This document shows, piece after piece, positions 8,422 to 26,323 of a stretch of 64,000 bases of DNA. Position 1 is the stretch's first letter, and each line of letters starts with the position of its first letter. The translations under genes and the position numbers were made by a program. The stretch comes from an uncultured bacterium (lineage in GTDB: Bacteria; Bdellovibrionota; Bacteriovoracia; Bacteriovoracales; CAZZBM01), in contig CAZZBM010000001.1 in the NCBI GenBank assembly GCA_964652255.1, positions 530,985 to 594,984 on the forward strand, given 5' to 3'. The notes under the pieces are model-generated. The model was not told the DNA's origin. It made no database searches and saw only the letters and a list, made by a program, of their open reading frames with translations.

Positions 8422-9269
8422 TTTTCAAGAACTCTAAGTTTTGCACTTCTCGATCTTGGATTAAGATCAATCTCTTCTTCACTTGGAGTAACAGGTTTTT
8501 TTGTAAGAATCTTTCCTTCACTGGATTTAAAAAAGTGTTTAACAATTCTATCTTCTAAAGAATGAAAACTAATCACTAAGAGTCTCCCCCTCTTGTTCAA
8601 AGACTGAAACAGTAAAGGAAGTGTTGTCTCTAAATATTCAAGTTCGTCATTGATATGAATTCTTAAAGCTTGAAATACTTTTGTTGCAGGATGAATTTTA
8701 TGATATCCAGGAAAAAGATTCTTCACAAACTCAGCTAAATCTAAAGTTGTTAAAAAAGGTTTTTTTTTTCTTCTTAATACTATCTGCTTAGCAATTCTTC
8801 TAGAAGATCTCTCTTCTGCATAGTAAAAAAATAAATCAGCTAAGTCTTTTTCAGAATAAGTTTGTAAAACTTCACTGGCAGTTAAAGAATTTTTCTGATT
8901 CATCCTCATATCTAATGGACCTTCTTTTTGAAAAGAAAATCCTCTCTGTTGAGATTCTAATTGATGTGATGAAACTCCTATATCCATTAGAATAAAGTCT
9001 GGATGATACGTTTTTTTTTCTAAAAAAGAAGGAACATCTTTAAAGTTTAAATGATGAGCTTGAAATCTTTGGTCTTGAATCTTTTTTGCATTCTCAATAG
9101 ACTCTAAGTCTTGGTCAAAAGCTATAATTTGAGCTTTTGATTTTTTTAATAAAGCTAGACTATGACCACCAGCTCCTAGAGTTAAATCTAAAATAAGTTT
9201 TTCTTGACCTTGAAGATAAGAAAGAACTTCTTGAAGTAAAACTGGGGTATGATCTTTATACAAAATCAT
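8418..9269 (-). CDS. rsmH: 16S rRNA (cytosine1402-N4)-methyltransferase RsmH (MraW)
   Basis: Motifs HTPVLLQEV, DLTLGAGGHS, DIGVSSHQL and ISFHSLEDR. Sits at the head of the dcw cluster. Confidence 0.9.
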   Translation of the reverse strand: MILYKDHTPVLLQEVLSYLQGQEKLILDLTLGAGGHSLALLKKSKAQIIAFDQDLESIENAKKIQDQRFQAHHLNFKDVPSFLEKKTYHPDFILMDIGVSSHQLESQQRGFSFQKEGPLDMRMNQKNSLTASEVLQTYSEKDLADLFFYYAEERSSRRIAKQIVLRRKKKPFLTTLDLAEFVKNLFPGYHKIHPATKVFQALRIHINDELEYLETTLPLLFQSLNKRGRLLVISFHSLEDRIVKHFFKSSEGKILTKKPVTPSEEEIDLNPRSRSAKLRVLEK

Positions 9270-9672
9270 GAAAATTTATAGTAGAACCAAGCGATTTAGT
9301 TTGCTTTTCAAAAAAGTTTTGAGATTCTTCAAATTCAAATTTTTCTTTACAGTGTATACAGCATTCAGCTGTAGGTCTAGCAAGAAGTCGTTCATATTTA
9401 ATCCCTTCACCACAAGAGATGCAAATACCAAATTCTTCTTTTTCAAATTTTTCTAAAGATTTTTCGACTTTTTTTAAATAAAGAATATCCCTATTTCTAA
9501 ATCTTAAAACTTCATTCCTAAAATATTCAGTAGTTGCTGAATCTACCTCATCGCCAGTTTTTCTTTCTAGAATGGTTTCATAACTGTTTTTTCCTAAAAG
9601 AAGAAGTTTTCTCTTTTCTTCTAAAAGCTTGTTTTTTAAATTCTTTAATTGCAGAGTTGTTAATTTTTTCAT
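9256..9672 (-). CDS. dksA: DksA/TraR-family C4 zinc-finger RNA polymerase-binding factor
   Basis: Coiled-coil tip DEVDSA (DxxDxA), then RNRD, and a zinc finger C-I-S-C ... C-I-H-C, aligning by eye with E. coli DksA. Confidence 0.8.
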   Translation of the reverse strand: MKKLTTLQLKNLKNKLLEEKRKLLLLGKNSYETILERKTGDEVDSATTEYFRNEVLRFRNRDILYLKKVEKSLEKFEKEEFGICISCGEGIKYERLLARPTAECCIHCKEKFEFEESQNFFEKQTKSLGSTINFHDFV

Positions 9673-10241
9673 AAATGAATCCTCATCTCTTTTCTAATTT
9701 CTTGTATAAGAGATGAAAGAGTTTCAAAAACTCCTTCACCTTTGCTAGCAATAGCTTCTTGACTTAAATACTGTTCACAATGAAGTAATTTTTTTAGTTT
9801 TGAAGTTGGATAAATATCTTTTAAATCCCTTTTATTTAATTGAATAATCATGGGAATTTTTAAGTTTTCTTCTGTCATTATTTTTTGTAAATCCTGTAAA
9901 CTTTCTTCATTATCTTTAAGTCTTTTTCTTTGAGAATCAACAACAAAAACTATGCCATCTAAGCCTTGTAGAATGAGTTCCCGGATTTCTTCATTGATGA
10001 GTTGACCTGGAATTGTATATAAATGAATTTTAACATTAAAACCACCAAAAGAATCTCCTTGAACAGGAAGAAAATCAAAAAATAAAGTTCTTTCATTTTC
10101 TTTTTTTAAAAGATTGAGATCTAAGTCTGGTTGTTGAGAATAGTAAATATATTGTAAATTAGTAGTTTTTCCACCAAGTCCAGGGCCAAAATAAAGAATT
10201 TTTAAATGAATCTCCTTAGAAGAAAAATTTACAAAGGACAT
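9669..10241 (-). CDS. mglA: Ras-like polarity GTPase MglA
   Basis: The N-terminus MSFVNFSSKEIHLKILYFGPGLGGKTTNLQYIY is near-identical in pattern to Myxococcus MglA. Also NKRD (G4). The stop overlaps the dksA start by 4 nt. Confidence 0.85.
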   Translation of the reverse strand: MSFVNFSSKEIHLKILYFGPGLGGKTTNLQYIYYSQQPDLDLNLLKKENERTLFFDFLPVQGDSFGGFNVKIHLYTIPGQLINEEIRELILQGLDGIVFVVDSQRKRLKDNEESLQDLQKIMTEENLKIPMIIQLNKRDLKDIYPTSKLKKLLHCEQYLSQEAIASKGEGVFETLSSLIQEIRKEMRIHL

Positions 10242-10283
10242 CTAAGATAAAAGAATAAACTTTTTTTTTTAAAAGGTAAAATT

Positions 10284-10871
10284 TTAAAAACTTTGTCTGT
10301 GATCAAAAGCTTTTGCGATCGTATAAGAATCAAAATATTCTAAATGACCACCAGCAGGTAAACCTAAACCTATTCGTTCTATTTGAACTTGATCTTTAAA
10401 AAGTTCTCTTAAATAAAAACAAGTTGTTTCAGCTTCTAAAGAAGACCCTAAAGCAAGTAGAATTTTTTTAATCTCTTTTTGATCAATTAATTTTTTAAGC
10501 TGTCCTATGGGAAGATCACTTGGACCAATACCTTTTAAAGGGTTGAGTATTTGTTTAAGAATAAAATAACATCCTTGAAAAACACCACTCTTTTCCATGG
10601 CTAATAAATCTGACATGCTTTCTACGATACATAAAAAATCTTGTTCTCTGTGAGGATCAAGACAAATATGACAAAGATCTTTTTCAGTAATAAAGCCACA
10701 ATGAGAACAAAAGTTTAGAGATTCAATGGTAAGAAGTTGTTCTCGGATTTTTTTTAAATCTTGTTTAGAAAAAGAAAGAAGCTGAAAAGCATAGCGCTGA
10801 GCTGTTTTTTCACCTACTCCTGGAATTTTACTAAGGCTTTTAATGAGATCTTTTAAAGATTCTGGAATCAT
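10284..10871 (-). CDS. recR: Recombination protein RecR
   Basis: Helix-hairpin-helix IPGVGEKTAQR, a C4 zinc finger CSHCG...CHIC, and a Toprim-like C-terminus. Confidence 0.92.
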   Translation of the reverse strand: MIPESLKDLIKSLSKIPGVGEKTAQRYAFQLLSFSKQDLKKIREQLLTIESLNFCSHCGFITEKDLCHICLDPHREQDFLCIVESMSDLLAMEKSGVFQGCYFILKQILNPLKGIGPSDLPIGQLKKLIDQKEIKKILLALGSSLEAETTCFYLRELFKDQVQIERIGLGLPAGGHLEYFDSYTIAKAFDHRQSF

Positions 10872-12090
10872 CTTTTCCTATAAATGTATCAGCTAAGTTG
10901 CCAAAAACTTTTTCTAAATCTTGAATTATAGGATCTGAAAAAGGATCCTCTTTTTTTTCTTCCTGAAATAAATGATAGCCTAAATTTTCTAGCTCATCTT
11001 TGTAAAGAGAGGAATCTTTAAAAGAAGAATCAAAATAAATAGTTTTATCTTCAATAAAAGGAAGAGTCTGAGAGTAAAATTCTTGAGCTTCTTCAGATAA
11101 AAGTGTTAAAATTTTTTTCCATCTTTGATCTGTTCCTTGATAGTAGTGTCTTAAAGTTATTTTCTGTAATAATAAGGTAAAGGGTTCTTGAAAAAGAGGA
11201 CTCTTATCAATCCATTGAAGATCCTTAAAAATAACTTCAGTGCACCAGAGTAGATCTAAGTTTTGAATATCTTCACTGCTTTTTTGAAAAAAAACTTTTA
11301 AAAAATCTCTAATAAAAAATTCTTGATGAAAAGCTATGGAAAAGATGTTGTTAAGAATTTTTTTAACCTCAATCCAATTACCTTTTAAAACATAGGTAAA
11401 AAGATCATTTAAGGTCTTTTGATCAATGAGTCCAAAGTAATCTTTAAGATCTTGATAAGTAATAAAATCTTTTTGTAAAAATAGAGGCTCTACTAAAGTT
11501 AAAGCATCTCGGTAAGAGCCTTGAGCTAGAAAAGCTAATTTTTCAAAAACTAAATCTTCAGCTTCCTTAGATTCTTTTTTAAAAAGAAGTTTTAAAAAAG
11601 AAATTAAATTTTCAACTGTTGGTTCCTCACAGTGAAGAACCAATACTCTTGAGAGAACAGTAAGAGGAATCTTATGTTTTTCTGTCGTAGCAAATAAAAA
11701 TCTTAAATGCTTTGGAGGCTCTTCTAATATTTTTAACAAAGCATTAAAAGCACTTTGAGAAAGCATGTGAACTTCATCAATAAGATAAATCTTATAAGAA
11801 GCTTTTAAAGGTGGATATGAACTTTGTTCAATAATTTCTCTGATTTCATCAACACCATTATAACTGGCTCCATCAATTTCAATAAAATCAGGATGCCTTT
11901 CTAGTGAATCTTTTAGAAGCTCTTGAGCGTATAAACGAGCTAAGGTGGTTTTACCTAAGCCTCTTCCTCCTACAAAAAGAAATGGACCTCCATGATTTTT
12001 TTTTAAGGCTTCTTGTAGAAGATGAACAAGATGATCCTGACCCACAACTTCTTTAAAGTTTTTAGGTCTCCATTTTTGAGCTAATGTCAT
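10840..12090 (-). CDS. dnaX: DNA polymerase III subunit gamma/tau (short form)
   Basis: Motifs WRPKNFKEVVGQ, Walker A GGRGLGKTT, DEVHMLS, a sensor region SRVLVL, and LAQGSYRDAL. Confidence 0.9.
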   Translation of the reverse strand: MTLAQKWRPKNFKEVVGQDHLVHLLQEALKKNHGGPFLFVGGRGLGKTTLARLYAQELLKDSLERHPDFIEIDGASYNGVDEIREIIEQSSYPPLKASYKIYLIDEVHMLSQSAFNALLKILEEPPKHLRFLFATTEKHKIPLTVLSRVLVLHCEEPTVENLISFLKLLFKKESKEAEDLVFEKLAFLAQGSYRDALTLVEPLFLQKDFITYQDLKDYFGLIDQKTLNDLFTYVLKGNWIEVKKILNNIFSIAFHQEFFIRDFLKVFFQKSSEDIQNLDLLWCTEVIFKDLQWIDKSPLFQEPFTLLLQKITLRHYYQGTDQRWKKILTLLSEEAQEFYSQTLPFIEDKTIYFDSSFKDSSLYKDELENLGYHLFQEEKKEDPFSDPIIQDLEKVFGNLADTFIGKDDSRIFKRSH

Positions 12091-12095
12091 AGGTG

Positions 12096-12203
12096 TCTAA
12101 CCTTGGCTTTAAGCACCCTAGATTGACATTCTACCGCTGCTAGATTTCTCTCCTCACGGGGTTCAAAGCAAGTCTAGTCACTTAAGAGACCAAGGCAGCT
12201 AGA
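12096..12203 (-). ncRNA. ffs: Signal recognition particle RNA (4.5S type)
   Basis: The reverse strand reads ...CCCCGUGAGG-AGA-GAAA-UCU-AGCAGCGG..., the domain IV pattern (compare E. coli CAGG-UCC-GGAA-GGA-AGCAGCC). It is closed by long pairing CCUUGG/CCAAGG and CUAGA/UCUAG. Canonical position immediately upstream of dnaX. Ends approximate. Confidence 0.75.
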
Positions 12204-12206
12204 ACA

Positions 12207-12249
12207 TAACTTAGAAGAGATCTTTTTACAAGAGATCTCTTCTAAGTTA
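12207..12249. other. 17-bp perfect inverted repeat (taacttagaagagatct / agatctcttctaagtta) between ffs and the divergent ORF
   Basis: Arms 12207-12223 and 12233-12249 are exact reverse complements. Function unknown. Confidence 0.6.
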
Positions 12250-12260
12250 CCTTTTAATTT

Positions 12261-12923
12261 ATGTATTATTTCTTTTTTTTATCCTCTTGTCTTAGTTCTT
12301 CCTATCGCCCCTTAGCTTCTTCTTTCACTCTGAAAGAAATTTTAAATGATTATAAAAATGAGCCGTTTTATAGGCTTTATTATGATTTAAATGAATTTAA
12401 AAATTTTGAGAATATCTTTACAGATACAGAGAGAAAAATACTTCATGAGTTTACTTTTAGTGAATGGAATGAACAACATTTTAATCTTTTTCTTAAGCCT
12501 TTGGTTGAACAAAATTTTTCTTATTTGGGAAAGATAGACTTGTATTACTTTTTTATTATCAATCTAGAGAAAAATATTTTATCATTTAAGGATGATTTGT
12601 TAAAAATAAAAACCAAGAAAGATTTTTTTCAATTACTTCTAACTTATAAAAAATATTATGAACAAGAATATGATGAAAATGAGTTAAATATTTTCTATAA
12701 TATTTCTGATTCTAATTATCAAAATTTAATAAAAAAAAAATATTTTCAAGAAAATTTTTCAAATTCTCAAAAAGAATCTATTGATTTTTTAAATCAAGTT
12801 TATAGAAGTCTTTCTTATGTCAACATTCTTAGCTTGATAGAGGCTTATAAAGAACAAGGTACCGTATCTTTAGAAGCATCATTTGGAAAAGTTCTCAAGT
12901 TAAGATATAAAATTTCTTTTTAA
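12261..12923 (+). CDS. Hypothetical lipoprotein
   Basis: N-terminus MYYFFFLSSCLSS has a lipobox-like LSSC. Asn/Lys/Phe-rich with no recognisable motif. Confidence 0.5.
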   Translation: MYYFFFLSSCLSSSYRPLASSFTLKEILNDYKNEPFYRLYYDLNEFKNFENIFTDTERKILHEFTFSEWNEQHFNLFLKPLVEQNFSYLGKIDLYYFFIINLEKNILSFKDDLLKIKTKKDFFQLLLTYKKYYEQEYDENELNIFYNISDSNYQNLIKKKYFQENFSNSQKESIDFLNQVYRSLSYVNILSLIEAYKEQGTVSLEASFGKVLKLRYKISF

Positions 12924-13921
12924 GGAGATGAATATCCTAGTTGAGAGTCAGTATTTAATGTTTTTTTTCTAAAGTAGCTTTTAATTAATGTCATTGGATT
13001 ATTATGGGGATTAAAAGAATCGTTTATATTTATACAACCTTTAAGATTTAAAAAAATAAGATTAGAAAGAATAAATTGATCATTATCATCGATTAATTCT
13101 TTAAAATGATTTTGAGTTAAAAAATAATTTTTTGATAAAATTAAATGTTGTAAATTCGAAGCTTTTTTCAAAAGAGATAAAACTTGTTTTTTTGAGTCAT
13201 CTTTTCCTAAGCTTTGAAAAGTGATATCTAGAATTTTTAATTTTTCGATAAAAGGATTTAAAAAATCTAAGTTTTGAATAGGACCATAAAGTTTATTTTT
13301 GTTAGTTTCAATGTTTAAATCAGGTCCTTGAAGATAGAAAAACTCAATATTTTTTGTTTCCGGTCCTATAAAATCAATTTTTGAAAAAATATTATCACTT
13401 AGGTCTAGTCTTTTTAAGGAAGAAGAATTAATTTCTTTTAAAGACTTTAATTGATTATGATCTAAGTTTAGAGCTTGCAATTTGGAAAATTGAGAAAAAT
13501 CAAAAAAACATTCTGTTAGTTGAGAAAAAGACAAAGAAAGATTTTGTAAACTGTTTTTAAAAGGGAGCAAAACTTCTAGGGCAGAGCAATCAAATTTTGC
13601 ATGAGAAAATTCTACTGTTTTTAATATAGTGTCTTGATGTTTTTTAATTTGTGCTTGAGCAAGTAGTTCAAAATTTTCTTTTAATTTTTCTAGATTATCC
13701 TTGGTATTGATGGCATGATATTTTATTTCTAAAGTTTCTAGATTTGTAAATTTTTCAAGTCCATCTAAAGAATTTATTTTATTTTTTGTGTCTTTTTGAT
13801 ATAAGCTGATGTTCTCGACATCATAGTTATCTTTAAATTGGTTAATTATACTAAATTTTGTATCATTGTTATGATAGTTTTGTGAAAAAACATTATATGT
13901 TAAAATAAAAAAAATCATCAT
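12920..13921 (-). CDS. Secreted leucine-rich-repeat (LRR) protein
   Basis: Hydrophobic N-terminus. Repeated LxxLxLxxNxL units (LETLEIKYH, LQNLSLSFSQL, LQALNLDHNQLKSL, LKRLDLSDNIFSKI, LQHLILSKN). Confidence 0.75.
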   Translation of the reverse strand: MMIFFILTYNVFSQNYHNNDTKFSIINQFKDNYDVENISLYQKDTKNKINSLDGLEKFTNLETLEIKYHAINTKDNLEKLKENFELLAQAQIKKHQDTILKTVEFSHAKFDCSALEVLLPFKNSLQNLSLSFSQLTECFFDFSQFSKLQALNLDHNQLKSLKEINSSSLKRLDLSDNIFSKIDFIGPETKNIEFFYLQGPDLNIETNKNKLYGPIQNLDFLNPFIEKLKILDITFQSLGKDDSKKQVLSLLKKASNLQHLILSKNYFLTQNHFKELIDDNDQFILSNLIFLNLKGCININDSFNPHNNPMTLIKSYFRKKTLNTDSQLGYSSP

Positions 13922-13973: not shown

Positions 13974-14381
13974 TTACTTTTTTCTCACAAGTATTTGATT
14001 ATCTTTAAAAGATTCTACAATGAGAATCTCGCCTTTTTTAGCAGGGGTTCCCTGAGCTTGCCAAATAGTTCCCATACATGACAAAAAACCTGAGCCAGAA
14101 AAATCTTCTTGTAAAAGAATCTCTTCATGTAGGGGATTTCTGGCAAAAGGATCTTCTTTTTGTTTTCTTTTTTTTAGAAGATATCGAGCAAGAAGAGATC
14201 CAATAAGAACAAAAAAAGAAAAAGAAGAAAAAAGAATATAAAGATTAGAAGTAAAAAAACCAATAAGAGAAGTAAGAAAAGATCCTATCCCAAAGAAAAG
14301 AAGAAAGTAAGTAAAGCTTGTTAATTCTAAAATTAAAAAAAATAATCCTAGAAGAAAAAAAGCTAAAACTGGTGAAATCAT
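13974..14381 (-). CDS. NfeD-family membrane protein
   Basis: Three N-terminal TM helices plus a short soluble C-terminal domain. Overlaps (4 nt) and follows an SPFH gene, the classic NfeD-SPFH operon. Confidence 0.7.
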   Translation of the reverse strand: MISPVLAFFLLGLFFLILELTSFTYFLLFFGIGSFLTSLIGFFTSNLYILFSSFSFFVLIGSLLARYLLKKRKQKEDPFARNPLHEEILLQEDFSGSGFLSCMGTIWQAQGTPAKKGEILIVESFKDNQILVRKK

Positions 14382-15304
14382 TCTTTGTCCTTTTTTATGG
14401 TTTCAAGAAGGGCTAGGAGAGGAGCAAAACTTTGCTGTGCTTCTAAGGGAAGAAAAAGAACTTTATGATTAGGTGAAGATGCCATCTCTTTTAAAGACTC
14501 AACATATTTTAAAGACATAAAATATCTCATAGTTTTATCATTGCTTGACTCAGCAACGCTTTTAATAGCATTAGCTTCAGCTATGGCTAATCTTTCTTTG
14601 ATTTCAGCTTCTTTTTCTGCTGCTATTCTTTTTCCTTCAGCTTCTACAATAGTTGCCATTTTTTGACCTTCTGCAGTAAGAATTGCTGATTGTTTCTCTC
14701 CTTCAGATTTTAAAATAGCTGCTTGTCTTAGTCCCTCAGCTTCTAAAATATTAGCTCTTTTATCTCTTTCTGCCTTCATTTGTCTTGCCATGGAATTTAC
14801 TAAATCTTGAGGAGGTTTAATGTCTTTAATCTCTACTCTTGTCACTTTTGTTCCCCAAGGACTTGTAGCCTCATCAATCACTTGAAGTAACTTAGCATTA
14901 ATAGCTTCTCTGTGAGAGAGGAGCTCATCAAGGTCCATAGATCCCATTACAGTTCTTAAACTGGTCATAGAAAGATTTAAAATAGCTTGTCTAAGATTTT
15001 CAACACCATAAACAGCTTTGGAAGGTTCTAAGATTCTAAAAAAAACTATACCATCGGTTTGAACAACAGCATTATCTTTTGTAATAACATCTTGAGAGGG
15101 AACTTGAAGAACTGTTTCCATGAGAGAAACCTTTTGTCTTATATTCTCAATAAAAGGACTAATAAATTGAATGCCTGGAGTAAGGGTTGTTTTATACTGA
15201 CCAAATCTTTCACAAACATAGTGATAACCTTGTGGCACAATCACAATCATCTTACTTAAAAAAGTAAGAAGAAAAACAACTAAAATAATAATAAAATAAG
15301 TCAT
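14378..15304 (-). CDS. SPFH/band-7 (stomatin/QmcA-like) protein
   Basis: One TM, then an SPFH core (TKDNAVVQTDGIVFFRI, RVEIKDIKPP) and an Ala/Glu-rich coiled-coil tail. Start moved to the ATG at 15304 because the track start (15379) lies inside tRNA-Arg. Confidence 0.85.
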   Translation of the reverse strand: MTYFIIILVVFLLTFLSKMIVIVPQGYHYVCERFGQYKTTLTPGIQFISPFIENIRQKVSLMETVLQVPSQDVITKDNAVVQTDGIVFFRILEPSKAVYGVENLRQAILNLSMTSLRTVMGSMDLDELLSHREAINAKLLQVIDEATSPWGTKVTRVEIKDIKPPQDLVNSMARQMKAERDKRANILEAEGLRQAAILKSEGEKQSAILTAEGQKMATIVEAEGKRIAAEKEAEIKERLAIAEANAIKSVAESSNDKTMRYFMSLKYVESLKEMASSPNHKVLFLPLEAQQSFAPLLALLETIKKDKE

Positions 15305-15317
15305 AAAGCTCCTTTTA

Positions 15318-15394
15318 TGGCGCAACCGGTACGATTCGAACGTACGACCTTCTGATTCGTAGTCAGATGCTCTATCCAACTAAGCTACGGCTGC
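15318..15394 (-). tRNA. tRNA-Arg (anticodon ACG), CCA encoded
   Basis: Hand-folded cloverleaf on the reverse strand: acceptor GCAGCCG/CGGTTGC, D arm GCTTAGTTGGATAGAGC, anticodon stem TCTGA/TCAGA with loop CTACGAA, T arm GTACG-TTCGAAT-CGTAC, 3' GCCA. Confidence 0.93.
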
Positions 15395-15455
15395 TCTAAT
15401 GAACTTTATTATGTAGATTCTTTCATATCTGTCAATAAAATGCTAAGAAAAGTTC

Positions 15456-15767
15456 ATGAATTTTTTATCCTTTCTTTTTAGGGACCCTATTGATTATAAA
15501 AAATTATATACAAAAGAAGTCATTCTTTTAGATGTAAGGACAGTTGAAGAATTTTCTAGAAAATCAATTCAAGGGAGTCAGCATCTTCCTTTACAAGAAT
15601 TAGGAGAAAAATATAAAAAATTAGATAAAAATAAAACTTATTTTATCTATTGTGCCAGTGGTGGAAGAAGCAGAACAGCCATGAATTTTTTAAAAAAACA
15701 AGGCTTTAATCATGTTTATAACACAGAAAGTGTGGAAAAAACAAAAACTATTATTGAATCAAAATGA
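15456..15767 (+). CDS. Single-domain rhodanese (sulfurtransferase)
   Basis: Active-site loop YCASGGRS (CxxGxRS) in a ~100 aa alpha/beta domain. Confidence 0.8.
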   Translation: MNFLSFLFRDPIDYKKLYTKEVILLDVRTVEEFSRKSIQGSQHLPLQELGEKYKKLDKNKTYFIYCASGGRSRTAMNFLKKQGFNHVYNTESVEKTKTIIESK

Positions 15768-15946
15768 ATTTTACAAAAATTTTTTTCTTATTTTTATTAG
15801 CCTTTATCATAAGAGATAAACCCATGGCTCAAAATTCAATCAATGTAGCATTTGAAATAATACCAGTAGAAAATGCTACTAATGCAACAACTTCTCAACC
15901 AAGCTATATAATTAAAATAAATGCTCATGATAAAAAAAAATTTTAG
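15764..15946 (+). CDS. Signal-peptide-bearing N-terminal fragment of the downstream LRR protein (frame broken at A9)
   Basis: The ATG overlaps the rhodanese stop (ATGA). Hydrophobic N-terminus MNFTKIFFLFLLAFII. Ends ...GAT AAA AAA AAA TTT TAG in the A9 tract. Confidence 0.5.
   Translation: MNFTKIFFLFLLAFIIRDKPMAQNSINVAFEIIPVENATNATTSQPSYIIKINAHDKKKF
15932..15940 (+). repeat. A9 homopolymer at a frame break
   Basis: Nine consecutive A read directly. It separates the two frames of the LRR gene. Confidence 0.95.
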
Positions 15947-16047
15947 ATTTAAGCTCTTTAAATATAGAGTATTTAAATTATTTAAAGACTTTTGATACGG
16001 TAGAAATATTAATCTTAAAAAATAATAATTTAACCTCAAAAGAGTTA

Positions 16048-16887
16048 ATGAATTTAAAGGATCATTTTCCTAATTTAAAAGAATTAGATCTATCCAGAAA
16101 TAATATTAAAGATTTAAACTTTTTAAACAATCTTACAAAATTAGAAAAACTTGATGTTAGCGGCAATCCTCTTGATGATCTGGTTATTGAGAATCACCCT
16201 TCTCTTAGGGAATTTATTTTTATGTCTAAACCAGGTTATTTTAAAAGATTTTCCTTTAAAAACTTACCTTCTTTAGAAAAAATTTATGTTACTATTGACG
16301 AAGAAAGTCCAGCTGGGTCTTTCATTTATCCAAGAGAACCTTTTGAGTTAAGTTTTTTACCTAGCTTAAAAACACTATATATGGACGCTATTTCTCATTA
16401 TAAATTTCATCTTGAAGGAGATTTTTCTGCTTTAAAATATTTAACTTATAGACAGACTAAAGTTCGTTATCTTGATTTTCTTTATTTTTTTCCTAATATT
16501 GAAGTTTTGGATCTTTCTTATAATGACATTGATGAATTTAACCCTTTAACATATTTAAAAAAATTAAAAGTTTTAGATCTCACTTTTAATCCCTTAATTG
16601 ATCTTCCAGAAAATTTATCTCCCGTTTTGCAGATTGTTTTTTTAGATAGAAGTACTGTGACAGGACTTCATCCTCTTTTAGCGATTCCCTCTGTTGAATT
16701 TATTTCTGCTGATTCATGCTCTTGGATTAAAAAGATGATTCCAGAATATAAACCTATTATGGGGGAAAAAGAAGTTAGTCTTTATGGGTCTTTTAGTGGA
16801 TTAACAACACAGGAAAGAAAAACTATTAATGTAGAAAAAAAAGCTCTAGAAGAAGTAGGAGTTAGGGTTTATACTGATGATTTTTAA
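16048..16887 (+). CDS. LRR protein (frame is open and LRR-like from 15934)
   Basis: LRR units LKELDLSRNNIKDLNFL, LEKLDVSGNPL, IEVLDLSYNDIDEFNPL and LKVLDLTFNPL. The upstream in-frame sequence KKILDLSSLNIEYLNYLKTFDTVEILILKNNNLTSKEL is also LRR-like. Confidence 0.75.
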   Translation: MNLKDHFPNLKELDLSRNNIKDLNFLNNLTKLEKLDVSGNPLDDLVIENHPSLREFIFMSKPGYFKRFSFKNLPSLEKIYVTIDEESPAGSFIYPREPFELSFLPSLKTLYMDAISHYKFHLEGDFSALKYLTYRQTKVRYLDFLYFFPNIEVLDLSYNDIDEFNPLTYLKKLKVLDLTFNPLIDLPENLSPVLQIVFLDRSTVTGLHPLLAIPSVEFISADSCSWIKKMIPEYKPIMGEKEVSLYGSFSGLTTQERKTINVEKKALEEVGVRVYTDDF

Positions 16888-16944
16888 AATTTAATAGGAT
16901 TAAAAATTTGATCTTTTTTTTAAAAAATGTCATCATAAGCCTTT

Positions 16945-17127
16945 ATGTTTTTTATTATTTTTTTTCTAAAGCTCTTTCTTCTTTCTTGCTCTACCCAGCA
17001 AGATAAACAATTTGATCCTCTTGATTCTTTTGTACCTTCTACAAACAAAGATGTTCAAGCTTATGATTCAGAAGAAGAGGTTTCAGTTCATACTTTAGAT
17101 AAAGATGAACGTTCTATATTTGATTGA
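16945..17127 (+). CDS. Small putative lipoprotein (60 aa)
   Basis: MFFIIFFLKLFLLSCSTQQ has the lipobox LLSC. The acidic tail overlaps the nagZ 3' end convergently. Confidence 0.4.
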   Translation: MFFIIFFLKLFLLSCSTQQDKQFDPLDSFVPSTNKDVQAYDSEEEVSVHTLDKDERSIFD

Positions 17128-18077
17128 ACTCTATTTATCTTTTCTATTTTTTTTAAAAGAAAATTTTCATTCAATTCTCCATTTTTAATAGCTTGTTCAA
17201 TGATTTTATTAACTTGATTAACAAGATTTGGTTGAAATTCTTCTGGATATTTTACTCTCATTTTTCCACTAGAAGCAAGGTCATTTTGAGAAAATAAAAG
17301 AAGATCATGTCCTGATTTTAAAGAGAATATTACTCTTTCTTTTAAGGAGTAATTTAAAAGTGCTCCCATATGAAGATCATCAGTAATAAGTAGCCCAGGA
17401 TAATTTTTTAAATGCTGCTTAATAAAATCTTTATCAAAAGTAATAGGTAAAGCATTTTCTTTTAAAAGAACATGAGCAGAAAGAATACAAGGGCTTTTTA
17501 GTTTTAAAAAAGGTTCTAATTCTTTTTTTTGATAGTTTTCTAAATAAAAAAGTCCTTGGTGTGAATCTTGATTGAGAGTAGCACTTCCATGACCTGGAAA
17601 ATGTTTAATGCAGGAGAGAATTCCTACTTCATTGTAAGCTTTAATAAAATCTTCAGCTATAGAAATAATTTTTTTAGTATCATCAGAAAACGCTCTATTT
17701 TTCATAATAGAGTTTTTGTCCCAAAGATCAACTAGAGGAGAATAATTAAGATTAATTCCAAGATTTTTTAAAAATAAAGCTTGTTCTTTAAAGTAAGCAT
17801 AGCGTTCAGGAGAGTTCATTTTGGAAACAAGAGTAGGATCTTTAAAAGAATAATGATCTTTTAATCTGTTTACTGAAGGGCTTTCAAAATCTGTAGAAAG
17901 AATTTGATTCTTTGGAAATTGAGCTAAAAAATTTTTAATTTCTTCTAGATTTTTGCTCTTAAAATCCGAATAAAAAAAGATATAACCAGCTTGGTTGCTG
18001 TTGATTTCTTCCATAAAAGAAGTAACACAAAGTTTTTCAAACATATTCTTAGTTATAGCTTTTTTTTTTACAATCAT
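17088..18077 (-). CDS. nagZ: Glycoside hydrolase family 3 beta-N-acetylglucosaminidase (NagZ-like)
   Basis: Motifs IKHFPGHGSATLNQDSH and ITDDLHMGAL. No signal peptide. The true start may be an internal Met (MFEKL or MEEIN). Confidence 0.8.
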   Translation of the reverse strand: MIVKKKAITKNMFEKLCVTSFMEEINSNQAGYIFFYSDFKSKNLEEIKNFLAQFPKNQILSTDFESPSVNRLKDHYSFKDPTLVSKMNSPERYAYFKEQALFLKNLGINLNYSPLVDLWDKNSIMKNRAFSDDTKKIISIAEDFIKAYNEVGILSCIKHFPGHGSATLNQDSHQGLFYLENYQKKELEPFLKLKSPCILSAHVLLKENALPITFDKDFIKQHLKNYPGLLITDDLHMGALLNYSLKERVIFSLKSGHDLLLFSQNDLASSGKMRVKYPEEFQPNLVNQVNKIIEQAIKNGELNENFLLKKIEKINRVQSNIERSSLSKV

Positions 18078-18375
18078 AAACTCTTACTTCATAAAGAAAA
18101 TTTTCGATTTTTTCTGAACCATGAAAAGAATAAGTGTACTCTTTTTTTATAAGATAAAAAGTATTACCAAAAAGTTCCAAGCTGTTTTTTTCTTCTATTT
18201 TTTTTAAAACATTTTTTTTATTAGGACCAGACATAATAATGCTTGCAATAAAATTACATTTTTTTGGTTCTTTTTCTGAAAAATTAACAGAAGAGAGATC
18301 TCTAGAAGAAGAACAAGATTGAAGACTAAGAATGATTATAAAGATCATCTGGATGAATAAAATAAATCTTTTCAA
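18049..18375 (-). CDS. Hypothetical lipoprotein
   Basis: MKRFILFIQMIFIIILSLQSCSSS has a lipobox. Confidence 0.45.
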   Translation of the reverse strand: MKRFILFIQMIFIIILSLQSCSSSRDLSSVNFSEKEPKKCNFIASIIMSGPNKKNVLKKIEEKNSLELFGNTFYLIKKEYTYSFHGSEKIENFLYEVRVYDCKKKSYN

Positions 18376-19055: not shown

Positions 19056-20135
19056 ATGATGTCTTTTCAAGAATTTTTATTGCCAGAAAAACTAAAAAAT
19101 AATGTAAAAAAAATGGGTTTTAATGAACCTACCCCTATTCAAGCTAAGGTTTTACCTTTGGCTTTTCAAGGGCATGACGTGATTGGATTAGCCCAAACAG
19201 GCTCAGGAAAAACAGCTGCTTATGCTATTCCAGGAGTTAAATATCTTTTGGAAAACAATCAAGGCAAAATTTTGATTTTAGTTCCTACAAGAGAACTAGC
19301 CTCTCAAGTGGCTGAAGTCTTTAAAAAGTTAATTTTAGATACTTCTTTAAAACAAGCCTTATTAGTGGGTGGTGTTCCTATGTATAAGCAGATAAGAGAT
19401 CTTAAATTTAAGCCAAGAATTTTTATTGGAACTCCTGGAAGAATTAATGATCTTTTAAAAAGAAAGATGCTTAGATTAGAAGATGTTCAGTATTTAGTTT
19501 TTGATGAAGTGGATAGAATGTTAGATATTGGGTTTCAAGTGCAAGTTGATGAAATCTTAAAATACTTAAAACAAAAAAAACAAACTTTATTTTTTTCAGC
19601 TACTTTAAGTCCTAAAGTCTCTAGTTTAGTGAAAAACTACTTAATAGATCCTAAAAAAATAACCATAGGAACAATTAATAAACCAGTGGCTTTATTAGAG
19701 CAAAAAACAATTAAAGTAAATGAGAAAGAAAAGTACACATCTTTAAAAGATGCTTTAATAAAGATTGATGGATCAAGTTTAATTTTTGTTAAAACAAAAC
19801 ATATGTCAGCTAACTTAGCAAAAAAACTCAAGGAAGATGGTTTTTTCACAGAAGCTTTTCATGGTGATTTAAGTCAAGGTGCTAGAAATAGAGCCATACA
19901 GTCTTTTAAGAGAAATGATAAAGCTATTCTAGTAGCGACAGATATCGCTTCTAGAGGACTTGATATTGATCATATTAAATGTGTTTTTAATTTTGATCTT
20001 CCTCATAATCCAGAAGATTTTGTTCATAGAGTGGGTAGAACTGCTAGAGCAGGAAGAACAGGTCAGTCTATTACATTTTTATCAAGAAAAGATGAATTTC
20101 TTTGGAAAAAAATCTTAAGGTTAATCAATAGTTAA
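19056..20135 (+). CDS. DEAD-box ATP-dependent RNA helicase (core only)
   Basis: Q motif FNEPTPIQ, then AQTGSGKT, PTRELA, DEVD (motif II variant), SAT, and HRVGRTARAG. Confidence 0.9.
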   Translation: MMSFQEFLLPEKLKNNVKKMGFNEPTPIQAKVLPLAFQGHDVIGLAQTGSGKTAAYAIPGVKYLLENNQGKILILVPTRELASQVAEVFKKLILDTSLKQALLVGGVPMYKQIRDLKFKPRIFIGTPGRINDLLKRKMLRLEDVQYLVFDEVDRMLDIGFQVQVDEILKYLKQKKQTLFFSATLSPKVSSLVKNYLIDPKKITIGTINKPVALLEQKTIKVNEKEKYTSLKDALIKIDGSSLIFVKTKHMSANLAKKLKEDGFFTEAFHGDLSQGARNRAIQSFKRNDKAILVATDIASRGLDIDHIKCVFNFDLPHNPEDFVHRVGRTARAGRTGQSITFLSRKDEFLWKKILRLINS

Positions 20136-20951
20136 ATTTTCTTCTTTTAAATAAGGAAGAGTTTTTAAAACTTCTTCCTTATTAATATCATTATTTCTAA
20201 TGTTTAAAATTTCTAAAGATGGGAGTTCCTTTATTGGAGTAACATCACAGATATAGTTATTTTCTATGTTAAGATAAGTAAGTTTTTTTTTATCTTGAAG
20301 ATAATCTAAATCTGTTAAAGAGTTGTTCATTAAGGAAAGATATCTTAATTGGCTAAGATTACGTAGACCTATGAGTTGATGTATCTCATTTCCATTAGCT
20401 ATCAGAAAATGAAGATTAAAAAGAATCCTTGCAAAATTAATATTATTTAAAGCATTGTAACTCACAGAAAGAGTTTTAAGTTGATGTAATTTACCAATAG
20501 AGTTAATATTTTTTGGATAAGTACCATTAAGATTTAAAAAAATAATAGATTTTAAATTTTCAATTTCTTTTAAATCTACATTCTTATTATAAGAAAGATC
20601 TAAAAATTTTAAATTTGGTAAAGAATAAAAATTAATTCTAAAAAAAAGTTTCTTTTTTGAGAGCTTAAGAACAATCATTTGAGAGAGAGTCTTGATTTTA
20701 TTATTTCTTAAATTGAGGTCTTCAAGAGAAGAAAGTTCATGAAGAGAAGAAAGATCTGAAATAGCATTAAAACTAAGATTTAGTCTTTTTAGTTTTTTAA
20801 CCTTTTCTAAGCCTTTTGTACTTGTAATTTTATTATAACTTAAATCAAGAACTTCAAGATCAGGATAAGAGGATAAATCAGGAATTTCAGTATATCCTTT
20901 TTTAGAAAGATTAAGTTCAGTGGTACTATGAACTATCCATAAAAAAAACAT
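20121..20951 (-). CDS. LRR protein
   Basis: About ten 22-residue repeats (LEVLDLSYNKITSTKGL, LKRLNLSFNAISDLSSL, LEDLNLRNNKIKTL, LKFLDLSYNKN, LRYLSLMNNSLTDLDYL, LTYLNIENNYICDV, LEILNIRNNDI). Confidence 0.78.
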   Translation of the reverse strand: MFFLWIVHSTTELNLSKKGYTEIPDLSSYPDLEVLDLSYNKITSTKGLEKVKKLKRLNLSFNAISDLSSLHELSSLEDLNLRNNKIKTLSQMIVLKLSKKKLFFRINFYSLPNLKFLDLSYNKNVDLKEIENLKSIIFLNLNGTYPKNINSIGKLHQLKTLSVSYNALNNINFARILFNLHFLIANGNEIHQLIGLRNLSQLRYLSLMNNSLTDLDYLQDKKKLTYLNIENNYICDVTPIKELPSLEILNIRNNDINKEEVLKTLPYLKEENLTID

Positions 20952-20975
20952 AAAGAATTTATCGGAAAAATTTTC

Positions 20976-22130
20976 TTATTTTAGAAGAGCTTCTAAAAAA
21001 GAAATAGGCATCACTACAACTTCACCTGCTTTCTTAAAATGATTTTCATTCTTTCCAACAATGTTTTTAACATAATCTTGATATTCTTTAGGTAAGTTTT
21101 CTATTTCAATTTCAGAGGGTTCAATAAAACGCCTAGGAGGATTATTCTCTATAAACAACATACTTGAAATAATATTAACATAATGAACGAGTTTTTTTTC
21201 CACCAAGGGCTCTTTTTGGCTTTCCTCAACAAGATTAATTTGTTGTCTTAAACCTTCTTGTTCCTGTAGATATTTTTCCAAAAGAAGTTTTCTTAAAACC
21301 TCTTCTTTTTGTTCTCTCAATTCGTCCATATTAAGACCCAAGGACTCAGTATTTTTTAATAATTCTTCTTTTGTTTGAGAGGTTAATACTTTTTTATAAA
21401 GAGCTGTTTTTAGGTCTAAATCATCTTTTATCAGCTTGGTTTCAGATTTTTTTTCATTGACCTCTTGACTGGAAAGATAGACAATTTTTTCAAAATTTTT
21501 TTCAATCTCTATTTGATCTAAATCTAGAGCAATTCCTTGAGCCTCCTCTAGTTGTTTATAAGCCAGATCTAACTGTTTTTTTCCTGAAAGGTGTTCTTTA
21601 ATACTTCTTTGAAGAAGACAAGCTTCTGGATTTTTTGGACAATCTAATTTAAGCCCCTTTAAACATAATTCAAAAGAAGATTCGAGATTTTCACTGTTTT
21701 CTTGTAAGAGACATATAGAGTCCTTGCATTTAAAAGAAGCAGTTTTTTTATTTAAGCAGTAGGCACCAATTTGTAGAAGTAAGCGTCTAGAGGTAAGACT
21801 ATCCATAAGCTTTAAAAGATCCATTCTGTTTAATTGTTGTTTACTTACTTTATAGCCCTTACCTAGGAGTCCTTCAAGAATTCTTTCCTGAAGAAATTCT
21901 TTGTTTTTTTTATTTTCTGGATAAAGATCTAAAAGATGAGTTTCATGGTTTAATGTTTTAATTTCTTTAGGGGTTAAACGATTCAAAATTTTATAATAAC
22001 AATCAATAGGATCTTTTTCATTAAGACAAGATTTGAAAGTAGGGTGATTTAAAAGTCGATCTTGGGCTAGTTTTTTTTTCAAAGCTTCAGCAGCTTCTTG
22101 TTCTAGAGAAGAAAATAAAAAGAACAACAT
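20976..22130 (-). CDS. Hypothetical protein with a Cys-containing middle and a coiled-coil C-terminal half
   Basis: Long ORF 24 nt upstream of the LRR gene. No recognisable motif. Confidence 0.5.
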   Translation of the reverse strand: MLFFLFSSLEQEAAEALKKKLAQDRLLNHPTFKSCLNEKDPIDCYYKILNRLTPKEIKTLNHETHLLDLYPENKKNKEFLQERILEGLLGKGYKVSKQQLNRMDLLKLMDSLTSRRLLLQIGAYCLNKKTASFKCKDSICLLQENSENLESSFELCLKGLKLDCPKNPEACLLQRSIKEHLSGKKQLDLAYKQLEEAQGIALDLDQIEIEKNFEKIVYLSSQEVNEKKSETKLIKDDLDLKTALYKKVLTSQTKEELLKNTESLGLNMDELREQKEEVLRKLLLEKYLQEQEGLRQQINLVEESQKEPLVEKKLVHYVNIISSMLFIENNPPRRFIEPSEIEIENLPKEYQDYVKNIVGKNENHFKKAGEVVVMPISFLEALLK

Positions 22131-22172
22131 TTAAGGTTATTGTAATTTTTTTTATAAAAATAATAAAGTTTT

Positions 22173-23231
22173 TTAATAAAAATCAAAACTTAAAGAATAA
22201 GCTCCTTTTTCTTCGAATTTCAAAGACACTTGCCTATCAGTAGAGCCTTTATTGAAAATATATGGAAAAGAAGGTGATAAGTTGCTGAAGTTTGTAGTCT
22301 CGTACTCATATTGAATTGTTGGAGGAGAGAACTTAAAATTTAATGATATATCTTTAGGTTTTTTGTCTCCAACGTCTTTAATTGTGAAGCCACTAGGATG
22401 ACCTGAATCTCTATATAGATCGATATATGTCCTAAGTGTCTTGGAAGAATTTTTGTATAGCTTAAAAATAATACTAATATACAAATATGTGTTTATAAAA
22501 AAAGTTGAATAATATAAAGCAATTTTTAGTTTTTCTAATGAAGGAAAAAGTTGAGGTTGTTCAATATCTATTAGATAGCTTGAAGCAGATATACTATTTT
22601 TTTTCAATTTCAATTTTATTTAATATATAAAAATCAATGGATAATAACTTTAAAGAAGAAAAAAAAGTAGAATTAGTTTTTTTATCAAAAAGTAATTCAG
22701 TACTTAATATGTTATAAAAACGACGTTTTGGTGTAATTTGTTGAAAACAAGAAGAATCTTTTAAATAGATTGTTAGAAACAATTTTTCTAGCTTGTTGAG
22801 TTTGCTTATATCTTTAAAAAGTGCTAAATATTCATCGGAATTATCTATATATACGCTAAATGCAAGTGTATTAAAATAGAAGATATGTTCCATGGGGTTG
22901 AGTAAAGAATATAAATTCTTTTTATCTTTTAAAACTTTTGAATAAGATAAAATTCCATTAAACTTAGTTGAGTCATTATTAATTATTTTTTTATATCTTC
23001 TTCAAAGCTTGCTACATCTGAAAATATATTTTGAAAATATGATGCTATCGTGGGCTCAAGTACATATGAATTAGAGTCAGAAGGAGCTTAAAATGACAAA
23101 AAGTCAGAATTTGAGAAACCAAAAGTAGATGTTTCATTAGAAAAAGTAATGTAGGGATATGTGAATGTAAACGGAGTATTATCTTCGTTATTTGAAAATA
23201 ATATAAAAAAGATATTAAAAAAAATTATTAT
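22173..23231 (-). pseudogene. Decayed secreted-protein gene: no ATG, one in-frame TAA, one frameshift in A8
   Basis: Track ORFs 22594-22893 and 22173-22613 join if the A8 tract (plus-strand T8 at 22597-22604) loses one base. The frame of 22594-22893 continues upstream through TAA at 23090-23088 to a signal-peptide-like IIIFFNIFFILFS. That peptide begins at ATA (23231) 6 nt after AAGGA. Confidence 0.55.
22597..22604 (-). repeat. A8 (coding strand) homopolymer at a frame break
   Basis: Eight consecutive T on the plus strand, at the junction of two overlapping ORFs. Confidence 0.95.
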
Positions 23232-23330
23232 TTTTTTCCTTATATTTAAAGTAAATTAGCGATAGAAAAGTACTGTGTTGTAAGAAAAAAGTCTATCTAA
23301 TATGTAAAAATGCAAAAAATCAAAATTAAT

Positions 23331-24710: not shown

Positions 24711-26088
24711 AAAACTCTTCTCCTAGAGCTAAAAGTTGTTCTTCTTGAAAGTGAGGTGCAACAAGTTGTAAGCCACAAGATAAATTTTGCTCAGCTAAAC
24801 CCAAAGGAATATTAAGTGCAGGAAGATTAGCTAAGCTGATACCAACAGTGAAAAGATCAAGAGTATGTTCTTGTAAGGGAGTTAGTGTGTCAGTAAGTTT
24901 TGGAGCTACAAAAGCATTGGTTGGAATCATGATAAAATCAAGACATTCAAAATGTTTTAAAAATTCTTCAGTAATTTTTTGTCTTAAAAAAAGAGATTTT
25001 TCAAAGTAAGCTTCTTTTTTTGAAGAGTGAAGAAAATAAGTTCCTTCTAAAATTCTTCTTTTAACTTCAGGTCCAAAAAGTTCTCTTTGATTTAAAATAT
25101 AATCTTGTAAAGAATCATAGTCTTTAAAATCTCCGCCATATCTAAGACCATCTAGCCGAGCAAGATTAGAACTTGCTTCCGCTGAAACAAGAATATAATA
25201 AACCTGTCCCCAATAAGAAGCTGTATCAAAAGAAATTTCTTTGAGTTGAATGTTTTTTTTCTCAGCTTCCCTTAAAAAAGAAGAAAGTTGTTTTTGAATA
25301 AGAGGAGAACATTTTAAAATAAAGCTAGGATCATAACCTAATTTAATTTTACGAGATCTTTTTTCTTCTAAGGCTTTTAAGCAATTTGTTTTTGAAGAAT
25401 TCATGGTAGAATCTCGTAAATCTCTTTCTGATAAAACATCCAAAATCATAGCTAAATCCCTAGGACTTCTAGCTATAGGAGCTGCTTGATCAAAACTAGA
25501 AGCATAGGCAATTTGACCATAGCGACTAATTCTAGAGTAAGTAGGTTTTAAAGACCAAAGTCCTTGAAAAGCAGCGGGCAGTCTAATAGAGCCCCCAGTA
25601 TCAGTTCCAATGCTAAAAAAAGAAGAACCTTCTAAAACACTTGAAGCAGATCCTCCACTAGATCCCCCCGCATAATGATCTTGAGAGTGAGCATGAGTGC
25701 AAATTCCAAAAGCTGAATGACGATTTAAAGATCCCATCCCAAATTCATCACAATTGTTTTTTCCAATAAGAATAGCTTCTTCTTTTTTTAATAACTCAGA
25801 CACCTGTCCATCATAGGGAGCAACATAGTGAAGAAGATGTCTTGAAGCTCCTGTAGTTCTAAGTCCTTTGGTGAGAAAAAGATCTTTTAAAGAATAAGGA
25901 ATAGCTGTTAAATAATGATGAATTTTTTTTATTTGAGAAGCTTGAAAAAGAGCCTGATCTTTTAAAAGAGAAATAAAAGCATTACTTGAAGATTTTTCAG
26001 CTTTATGAAAAGCTTCAGTAGTTAATTCCGTGGGAGTAATTTTTTTTTCAATTAAAGCCTGATGAGCTTCGCTAATTGTTTTAAACAT
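24703..26088 (-). CDS. gatA: Asp/Glu-tRNA(Asn/Gln) amidotransferase subunit A
   Basis: Amidase signature GGSSGGSASSV...GTDTGGSIRLPAAF. Confidence 0.93.
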   Translation of the reverse strand: MFKTISEAHQALIEKKITPTELTTEAFHKAEKSSSNAFISLLKDQALFQASQIKKIHHYLTAIPYSLKDLFLTKGLRTTGASRHLLHYVAPYDGQVSELLKKEEAILIGKNNCDEFGMGSLNRHSAFGICTHAHSQDHYAGGSSGGSASSVLEGSSFFSIGTDTGGSIRLPAAFQGLWSLKPTYSRISRYGQIAYASSFDQAAPIARSPRDLAMILDVLSERDLRDSTMNSSKTNCLKALEEKRSRKIKLGYDPSFILKCSPLIQKQLSSFLREAEKKNIQLKEISFDTASYWGQVYYILVSAEASSNLARLDGLRYGGDFKDYDSLQDYILNQRELFGPEVKRRILEGTYFLHSSKKEAYFEKSLFLRQKITEEFLKHFECLDFIMIPTNAFVAPKLTDTLTPLQEHTLDLFTVGISLANLPALNIPLGLAEQNLSCGLQLVAPHFQEEQLLALGEEFYV

Positions 26089-26323
26089 CTTGAACCAGAG
26101 GGATTTTAATAAGATTTTTTTTTCTTCTTGGAGCTAAATGAAGAAGAGGAATAGATTCTTTAACTTCATCTTTTCTAAGATGAAGATAATTTTTTTTAGA
26201 AACGATCATTTTAGCTGAGAGAGAATCTAAAAACTCTGTATAATGAACAATTTCTAAAAGATCTTCTTCTAGTTCTTGAGTTTTTTTGATCCCAGCTAGC
26301 TCAAATATTTTATCTATCTTCAT
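26081..26323 (-). CDS. gatC: Asp/Glu-tRNA(Asn/Gln) amidotransferase subunit C
   Basis: 80 aa, immediately upstream of and overlapping gatA. Weak sequence signal (LRKDE). Confidence 0.7.
   Translation of the reverse strand: MKIDKIFELAGIKKTQELEEDLLEIVHYTEFLDSLSAKMIVSKKNYLHLRKDEVKESIPLLHLAPRRKKNLIKIPLVQDV

Follow-up and report, generated by a model that had tools for sequence, protein, structure and literature searches.

The 64-kb stretch of bacterial DNA analysed here (the window, on which all positions are numbered) carries at 15764-16887 two open reading frames (ORFs) which meet at a run of nine adenines, a 60-codon stub and an ORF for a leucine-rich repeat (LRR) protein. We favour, with moderate confidence, the explanation that they make up one lineage-specific gene encoding 374 residues with an N-terminal Sec-type signal, interrupted by a genuine deletion that turned A10 into A9. 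That the stub and the LRR body were one ancestral gene is supported by sequence comparison and by a structural model, while the direction of the change (a deletion) and any rescue of the gene by slippage are presumed. The features of the interrupted gene and of the gene upstream of it are the following.

15456-15767, + strand: rhodanese-domain gene (Pfam match to PF00581, E 1.4e-16)
15764-15946, + strand: 60-codon stub ORF that forms the reconstructed LRR gene's 5' part, with its own gene call (60 aa) on the Logan contig described below
15764-15829, + strand: putative Sec signal peptide, residues 1-22 (MNFTK / IFFLFLLAFII / RDKPMA), read from the sequence
15932-15940, + strand: A9 tract, exactly nine A's on the coding strand, the frameshift point
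15934-16047, + strand: open 38-codon extension 5' of the annotated start, with the first two LRR units (KKILDLSSLNIEYLNYLKTFDTV / EILILKNNNLTSKEL-)
16048-16887, + strand: annotated LRR ORF (P0001), 279 aa from the ATG at 16048 (LRR_4 E 1.5e-17, LRR_8 E 4.7e-10)

The TGA stop of the rhodanese gene and the ATG of the stub share an ATGA overlap (15764), by which the two are probably translationally coupled. The stub product (MNFTKIFFLFLLAFIIRDKPMAQNSINVAFEIIPVENATNATTSQPSYIIKINAHDKKKF) starts with MNFTKIFFLFLLAFIIRDKPMAQNS and has INAHDKKKF as its C-terminal end, the last codons being GAT AAA AAA AAA TTT TAG with the TAG at 15944-15946. The LRR frame, which is the -1 frame relative to the stub, is closed upstream by a TAA at 15931-15933 made from gaT AAa at the 5' edge of the tract, and no ATG, GTG or TTG start occurs in it between 15934 and 16048. 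The original prediction had described the ATGA overlap, this ending of the stub, the nine A's and an LRR frame open from 15934, and each was confirmed on the sequence. The stub is joined to the LRR frame by ten A's in the DNA or the mRNA, or by a -1 slip of the ribosome on A_AAA_AAA (...INAHDKKKILDLSSLN..., with a predicted junction peptide ...INAHDKKKILDLSSLNIEYLNYLK), and both parts are then fused, as had been proposed, into a protein of 374 aa where about 375 had been estimated. Met16048 is residue 96 of this fusion. The frame switch is restricted to 15934-15946, and the gene is open for 58 codons upstream of the single indel and for 314-317 downstream of it.

Four independent lines, namely LRR profiles, pairwise homology, the predicted solenoid and codon usage, speak for one ancestral gene. 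The first three continue unbroken from about residue 58-60 of the fusion through Met96, and codon usage is gene-like on both sides of the tract. On the fusion, the Pfam profiles LRR_9 (residues 55-133), LRR_14 (63-181) and LRR_8 (80-137) begin upstream of Met96. When the extended LRR frame (317 aa, the first 38 being the extension) was used as query in an exhaustive phmmer search, many alignments to unrelated LRR proteins began at extension residues 2-4, just past the lysines encoded by the tract. For the fusion, AlphaFold2 predicts (mean predicted local distance difference test, pLDDT, of 74; predicted template modelling score 0.73) a regular beta/alpha solenoid that extends from residue 60 to about 340, with short strands evenly spaced, and the first two of these strands, 60-62 (ILD) and 82-84 (ILI), are predicted in the extension with a pLDDT of 75 rising to 91. 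In the model the second repeat's helix ends at Met96, so that the annotated start would split an LRR unit. Block means of pLDDT along the solenoid are mostly 81-96, with two blocks at 74 and 54 and a drop to 60-71 near residue 340; residues 1-56 are poorly modelled, with a helix at 4-16 of low pLDDT. The earlier suggestion that the 38 extra residues are themselves LRR units thus agrees with Pfam, phmmer and the modelled strands alike.

Codon usage was scored with a log-odds model for which 49 long ORFs from the window served as training set and in which real genes reach 0.55 +/- 0.17-0.21 and off-frames -0.76. In the proposed frame the stub scores +0.39 (-0.68 and -0.72 off frame) and the extension +0.35, and in the other frames the stub and extension together give values from -0.49 to -1.33. 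The off-frame stop density of the window, 0.089-0.099 per codon, gives a probability of 0.019-0.029 for 38 open codons and of 0.002-0.004 for 60. Of the original claim of a split exported LRR gene, the split of a single gene is carried by homology, model and codon usage, and the export part is read from the hydrophobic N-terminus.

The tandem repeats of the protein are of the LxxLxLxxNxL type and pass the curated thresholds of the LRR clan in Pfam (LRR_4 63.7 bits against a cut-off of 27, LRR_8 39.5 against 27, LRR_6 35.2 against 23.4 and LRR_9 33.9 against 30.5). As modelled, the fold is a generic LRR one, of the kind found in Roco-LRR proteins, SDS22 and internalins. Foldseek matched it to Roco LRR, SDS22 and InlA with E values between 3e-8 and 1e-6, and the model shares with this class a curved solenoid and repeats of about 22 residues (probability 1.00 to 5il7, 6hkw, 2omx and 4fmz, at 15-21% identity). 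Unlike members of the class, the protein is without the internalin cap, the immunoglobulin-like inter-repeat domain, the LPXTG motif and the Roc-COR domain; its central repeats (about 150-240) are irregular and its best non-self matches are repeat-driven. The window also encodes a second LRR ORF of 276 aa (20121-20951, - strand), which is weakly similar to the first, at 25% across about 230 aa and 52% across 38-40 aa. This second ORF is without a signal peptide, has a T8 run right after its ATG, and is convergent with a DEAD-box helicase gene, whose 3' end it overlaps.

The N-terminus of the stub has a lysine at position 5, an 11-residue hydrophobic core (I6-I16) and a polar c-region. The length of the core suggests a Sec signal peptide over a membrane anchor. 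The sole AXA-like cleavage candidate lies between PMA and Q, where the proline at -3 is atypical. The fused LRR protein would then be exported, although the LRR proteins of this organism need not be Sec-exported, since the second LRR ORF has no signal peptide.

Several observations suggest that the nine A's are real. The 279-aa protein, the 60-aa stub and the rhodanese occur once each in a collection of 15 billion proteins, and the records of these three proteins are on an NCBI contig of 745,960 bp and in a Logan assembly. The contig of the latter, SRR12404947_65222 (12 kb), comes from another assembler and matches the window without a difference along the 5,713 nt fetched, the A9 included. 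Moreover, 33 runs of 9-11 bases within ORFs of at least 150 aa, among them glmS, gatA, ftsI, dnaX and coxA, all keep their frame, and homopolymer miscalls are for that reason taken to be rare in this assembly. No match to the fused (A10) form of the protein was obtained in a homology search of 5.8 billion proteins.

The A9 tract itself is not very special. The window has about 29% GC and contains 42 A/T runs of at least nine bases in its 64 kb, of which 33 are within intact, mostly housekeeping ORFs. Intact ORFs make up 53 kb and contain 25 poly(A) runs on the sense strand and eight poly(T) runs, all of 9-11 bases, examples being those of glmS (A9 at 28815-28823 and A10 at 29087-29096), gatA (A9 at 26040-26048), dnaX (A9 at 11996-12004) and an ORF with three A10 runs (33006-33311). 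With about 0.47 poly(A) runs per kb of coding sequence, a gene of 1.1 kb is expected to carry about half such a tract from composition alone. For comparison, E. coli has a single AAA_AAA_AAA across all its coding sequence (PMC5009743) and Blochmannia vafer has 153 poly(A) runs of at least nine in its whole coding complement (PMC3017870), and the density of coding poly(A) in the window appears to match or exceed that of Blochmannia and of insect endosymbionts. Two ORFs that meet at a homopolymer are not diagnostic either, because the ordinary junctions gatC/gatA (26115-26123) and orf108/nagZ (18060-18069) do likewise. It is the continuity of the domain across the tract that distinguishes this locus from such junctions.

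The events at the locus can be proposed as follows. Replication slippage, which readily causes such losses where a reduced genome is AT-rich, would have removed one A from a coding poly(A) run, and ribosomes starting at the coupled ATG at 15764 would now stop at the TAG at 15944-15946 after 60 residues. The LRR body could still be produced by two routes, either as an N-terminally truncated, signal-less product from Met16048 that would be short of two repeats, or as the full-length exported protein from a minority of transcripts to which RNA polymerase, by slipping back, would have added one A. A -1 ribosome slip on A_AAA_AAA or revertants at the DNA level might provide a rarer full-length route. 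The expected masses are about 43 kDa for the full-length form (about 40 kDa once processed), about 32 kDa for the product from Met16048 and about 7 kDa for the stub. The lesion would accordingly be either the point at which the gene begins to decay or a leaky frameshift that is tolerated, and an evolved recoding device is unsupported. The surroundings are consistent with decay in a reduced genome, as the window is AT-rich, has many coding poly(A) tracts and contains an apparently broken neighbour at 22173-23260. The direction of slippage fits as well, because the insertion of a single A, which is what the gene needs, is the main transcription error in A/T runs and becomes exponentially more frequent as a run gets longer (PMC5574713).

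Similar lesions have been described in endosymbionts. Eight homopolymer-frameshifted genes of this kind are reported for Blochmannia (PMC3017870), and that report, citing Tamas et al. 2008, PNAS 105:14934, presents transcriptional slippage as the probable rescue of endosymbiont genes that have a single homopolymer indel. The LRR gene resembles the Buchnera and Blochmannia cases in that it lies in a small AT-rich genome with many sense poly(A) runs of at least nine, has a sense-strand run of about that length or more with a gene otherwise intact on both sides of its single indel, and would be corrected by one added A. It differs in belonging to a Bdellovibrionota-like lineage, not an insect endosymbiont, and in being an orphan LRR gene and not a conserved housekeeping one, a conserved frameshift being the key argument in those studies. 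In tssM1 of Citrobacter rodentium a poly(A) run is likewise found just 5' of a premature stop, and added A's restore the frame so that full-length and truncated protein are made (PMC4256274). That tract is an A11 from which 20-25% of frameshifted product was measured, both products being needed (PMC4256274), whereas in the window the tract is an A9 and the short product would be a 60-aa stub.

No orthologue of the LRR gene was found. With the fused 374-aa query against 5.8 billion proteins only the 279-aa self match was returned, the next being a generic LRR protein at 29% identity; the exhaustive phmmer search, which covered 1.84 billion representatives, gave no orthologue, and the LRR query had no match among contigs of GTDB representative genomes or among JGI metagenome contigs. 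A DNA pattern of the tract with variable A length likewise had no match among metagenome contigs. As far as these searches go, the gene is a lineage-specific insertion without a detectable orthologue, and would be a dispensable accessory gene.

A number of points weigh against the interpretation as a deleted and decaying gene. The gene has a single lesion and good codon usage, which is what a maintained gene, whether slippage-dependent or phase-variable, would show just as well. Rescue by slippage is argued by analogy, and a genome-wide study of Buchnera found no transcript with a frame-restoring error (PMC5574713). In addition, the two assemblies may share the reads of one run, which would leave room for a systematic miscall or for a mixed A9/A10 population, and the signal peptide is a putative one.

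Among the other explanations, the one that survives best, although we consider it unlikely, is a phase-variable contingency locus in which slipped-strand mispairing between A9 (OFF) and A10 (ON) toggles the export of an LRR surface or host-interaction protein. The tract is early in the coding sequence, between the signal peptide and the functional domain, which is the classic position of a switch; LRR proteins are typical interaction modules, and apart from the tract the gene is unbroken and its codon usage good. As in known phase-variable loci, a short poly(A) is near the N-terminal coding part of a repeat protein that is putatively exported or at the surface, and one base would toggle the ORF. 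Unlike in such loci, the density of tracts is explained by base composition, runs of at least nine being everywhere in the window and mostly in housekeeping genes, so that no enrichment is seen. Moreover both assemblies show A9 only, with no length polymorphism between them, and no other tract length appeared among public proteins or metagenome contigs.

Slightly less probable again is a sequencing or assembly error, in which case the true genome would have A10 and the 374-aa gene would be unbroken. No consensus error is commoner than one in homopolymer length, one added A gives a perfectly continuous LRR protein, and the two assemblies may rest on the same reads. Nevertheless two assemblers agree without a mismatch over 5.7 kb, tract included, and the 33 tracts of 9-11 bases in long ORFs all being in frame also speaks against a miscall at this one.

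There is also a small chance that the A9 is a maintained expression device. By slippage in transcription or by reversible A9/A10 switching, it would provide an exported full-length protein and a signal-less cytoplasmic form from Met16048, in a Bdellovibrionota-related bacterium with a genome of about 0.75 Mb, from a gene inserted in the coupled slot of nagZ.

Programmed recoding, in which a selected -1 frameshift on A_AAA_AAA or programmed transcriptional slippage fixes the ratio of 60-aa to full-length product (as in dnaX, insertion sequence elements and tssM1), is more doubtful still. The heptamer A_AAA_AAA (15934-15940) is a valid X_XXY_YYZ in the frame of the stub, the LRR frame is -1 to it, and a zero-frame stop follows two codons past the tract; recoding on A tracts with two functional products moreover has precedent (PMC4256274, PMC5009743). 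A stop within two codons has, at the stop density of the window, a chance of about 18%. No stimulatory structure is apparent at 15941-16020, where the minimum free energy of -8.6 kcal/mol has a z of 0.10 and 105 of 200 shuffled sequences fold as well, and neither a GGAGG or Shine-Dalgarno (SD)-like element within 20 nt upstream nor an Rfam match was found. The resemblance to dnaX-type frameshifting is in the slippery A-rich heptamer of the zero frame and in the downstream ORF in the -1 frame (PMC5009743). The difference is in the missing SD element and stem-loop and in a heptamer that is A_AAA_AAA and not A_AAA_AAG (PMC5009743), the former being much less shift-prone than the latter in E. coli (PMC5009743).

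Very improbable, finally, is a reading of the two ORFs as independent genes, one for a small secreted peptide of 60 aa and one for a cytoplasmic LRR protein of 279 aa that starts at Met16048: the public annotation and the Logan contig both call the stub and the LRR ORF separately, Met16048 is still a possible start where SD sequences are absent from most genes, and the other LRR ORF of the window is also without a signal peptide, but Met16048 falls within an LRR unit, two more gene-like LRR units upstream of it end exactly at the tract, and no internal promoter or terminator for separate expression of the LRR body rose above chance. A clear SD is present in only about 10 of 54 genes, so that a missing one at either start is uninformative.

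The setting of the interrupted gene was compared with that of related contigs from activated sludge and other metagenomes. Two further features delimit the locus.

15318-15394, - strand: tRNA-Arg(ACG), conserved left landmark of the locus; the same tRNA sequence is 5' of the rhodanese gene in the relative L002
17088-18077, - strand: nagZ, encoding a GH3 beta-N-acetylhexosaminidase, inverted with respect to relatives

In the relatives the order is dnaX, NfeD-like, Band_7, tRNA-Arg, rhodanese, nagZ, and in these, the only relatives found (L002, at 9600-10990; L004; L005), rhodanese leads into nagZ on the same strand through an ATGA overlap with no LRR gene between. Over 15395-18077 of the window, the LRR gene fills the coupled slot which nagZ holds in relatives, and nagZ is inverted. 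The nearest homologues of NagZ are only 41-45% identical. The possibility that the stub is a relic of the 5' end of an ancestral nagZ (MNIGSLIIRGF in relatives, MNFTKIFFLFLLAFIIRDK here) was considered and rejected. The inverted nagZ is full length, with 329 aa as in relatives, and tblastn aligns it from about residue 7-26; its first residues also look related by eye to those of relatives, which leaves to the stub a resemblance of MN and IIR in AT-rich DNA.

Other observations concern the genes around the locus. The nagZ product starts with MIVKKKAI, with an A10 at codons 4-6 (T10 on the + strand, 18060-18069), and a lipoprotein-like 108-aa ORF located 5' of it (18049-18375, - strand) crosses the same run in another frame and has ...DCKKKSYN as its end. 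These two would be fused by a change of one base, although the overlap is probably ordinary because nagZ has the 329 aa of its relatives. A further ORF of 60 aa (16945-17127, + strand), with a lipoprotein-type N-terminus (MFFIIFFLKLFLLSC) and a strong coding score of +0.58, is called on the Logan contig; it overlaps the convergent 3' end of nagZ by 40 nt and has no family match. The Band_7 ORF (14378-15379, - strand), of 333 aa as mechanically called, runs into the tRNA-Arg gene, so its true start must lie at Met26 or Met44 (298 aa in relatives, 290 aa in the Logan call). The DEAD-box helicase (19056-20135, + strand) has 359 aa and its counterpart in relatives 504 aa (L002, 12401-13915); residues 1-358 align at 51% identity, and the C-terminal 145 residues or so are missing where a lineage-specific block (20121-23260) begins.

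At the end of this block, between gatB and a 384-aa ORF, the region 22173-23260 (- strand) has a signal-like N-terminus (KKIIIFFNIFFILFS), an in-frame TAA, frame changes at A7 (about 22988) and A8 (22597-22604) runs and weak codon scores. It had no homologues among 5.8 billion proteins and is a probable decayed orphan gene, its pseudogene status being judged from the structure of its ORFs.

The organism is suggested to be Bdellovibrionota-related because of the identity of its GroEL (74-76%) to metagenome-assembled genomes of Bacteriovoracaceae and the Ras/Arf-like GTPase gene found at a matching position on the contig of a relative. The genome or a close relative of it is apparently absent from the GTDB representatives searched, where the LRR query had no match and GroEL reached those values at best. 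The contig is 746 kb long with about 29% GC, and the window encodes an aa3 cytochrome oxidase, a multihaem cytochrome c, peptidoglycan synthesis and GatCAB. The cumulative GC skew has its minimum at about 10-11 kb (within about 9000-13000 of the window) and the - strand carries most of the genes as far as about 12 kb, the + strand most of those from about 30 kb onward, so that the replication origin may be a few kb from the LRR locus.

For annotation, the locus should read as one frameshifted gene and not as a 60-aa hypothetical protein followed by a 279-aa LRR protein starting inside a repeat. Frameshifts at poly(A) tracts are a well-known and common kind of lesion in reduced AT-rich genomes, and the high load of tracts implies a substantial burden of transcriptional slippage on the housekeeping genes of this bacterium. 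The two LRR proteins of the window together with the reduced genome hint, as context only, at a host- or prey-associated lifestyle. The locus offers a site at which slippage, decay and switching can be tested against each other in an unusual lineage.

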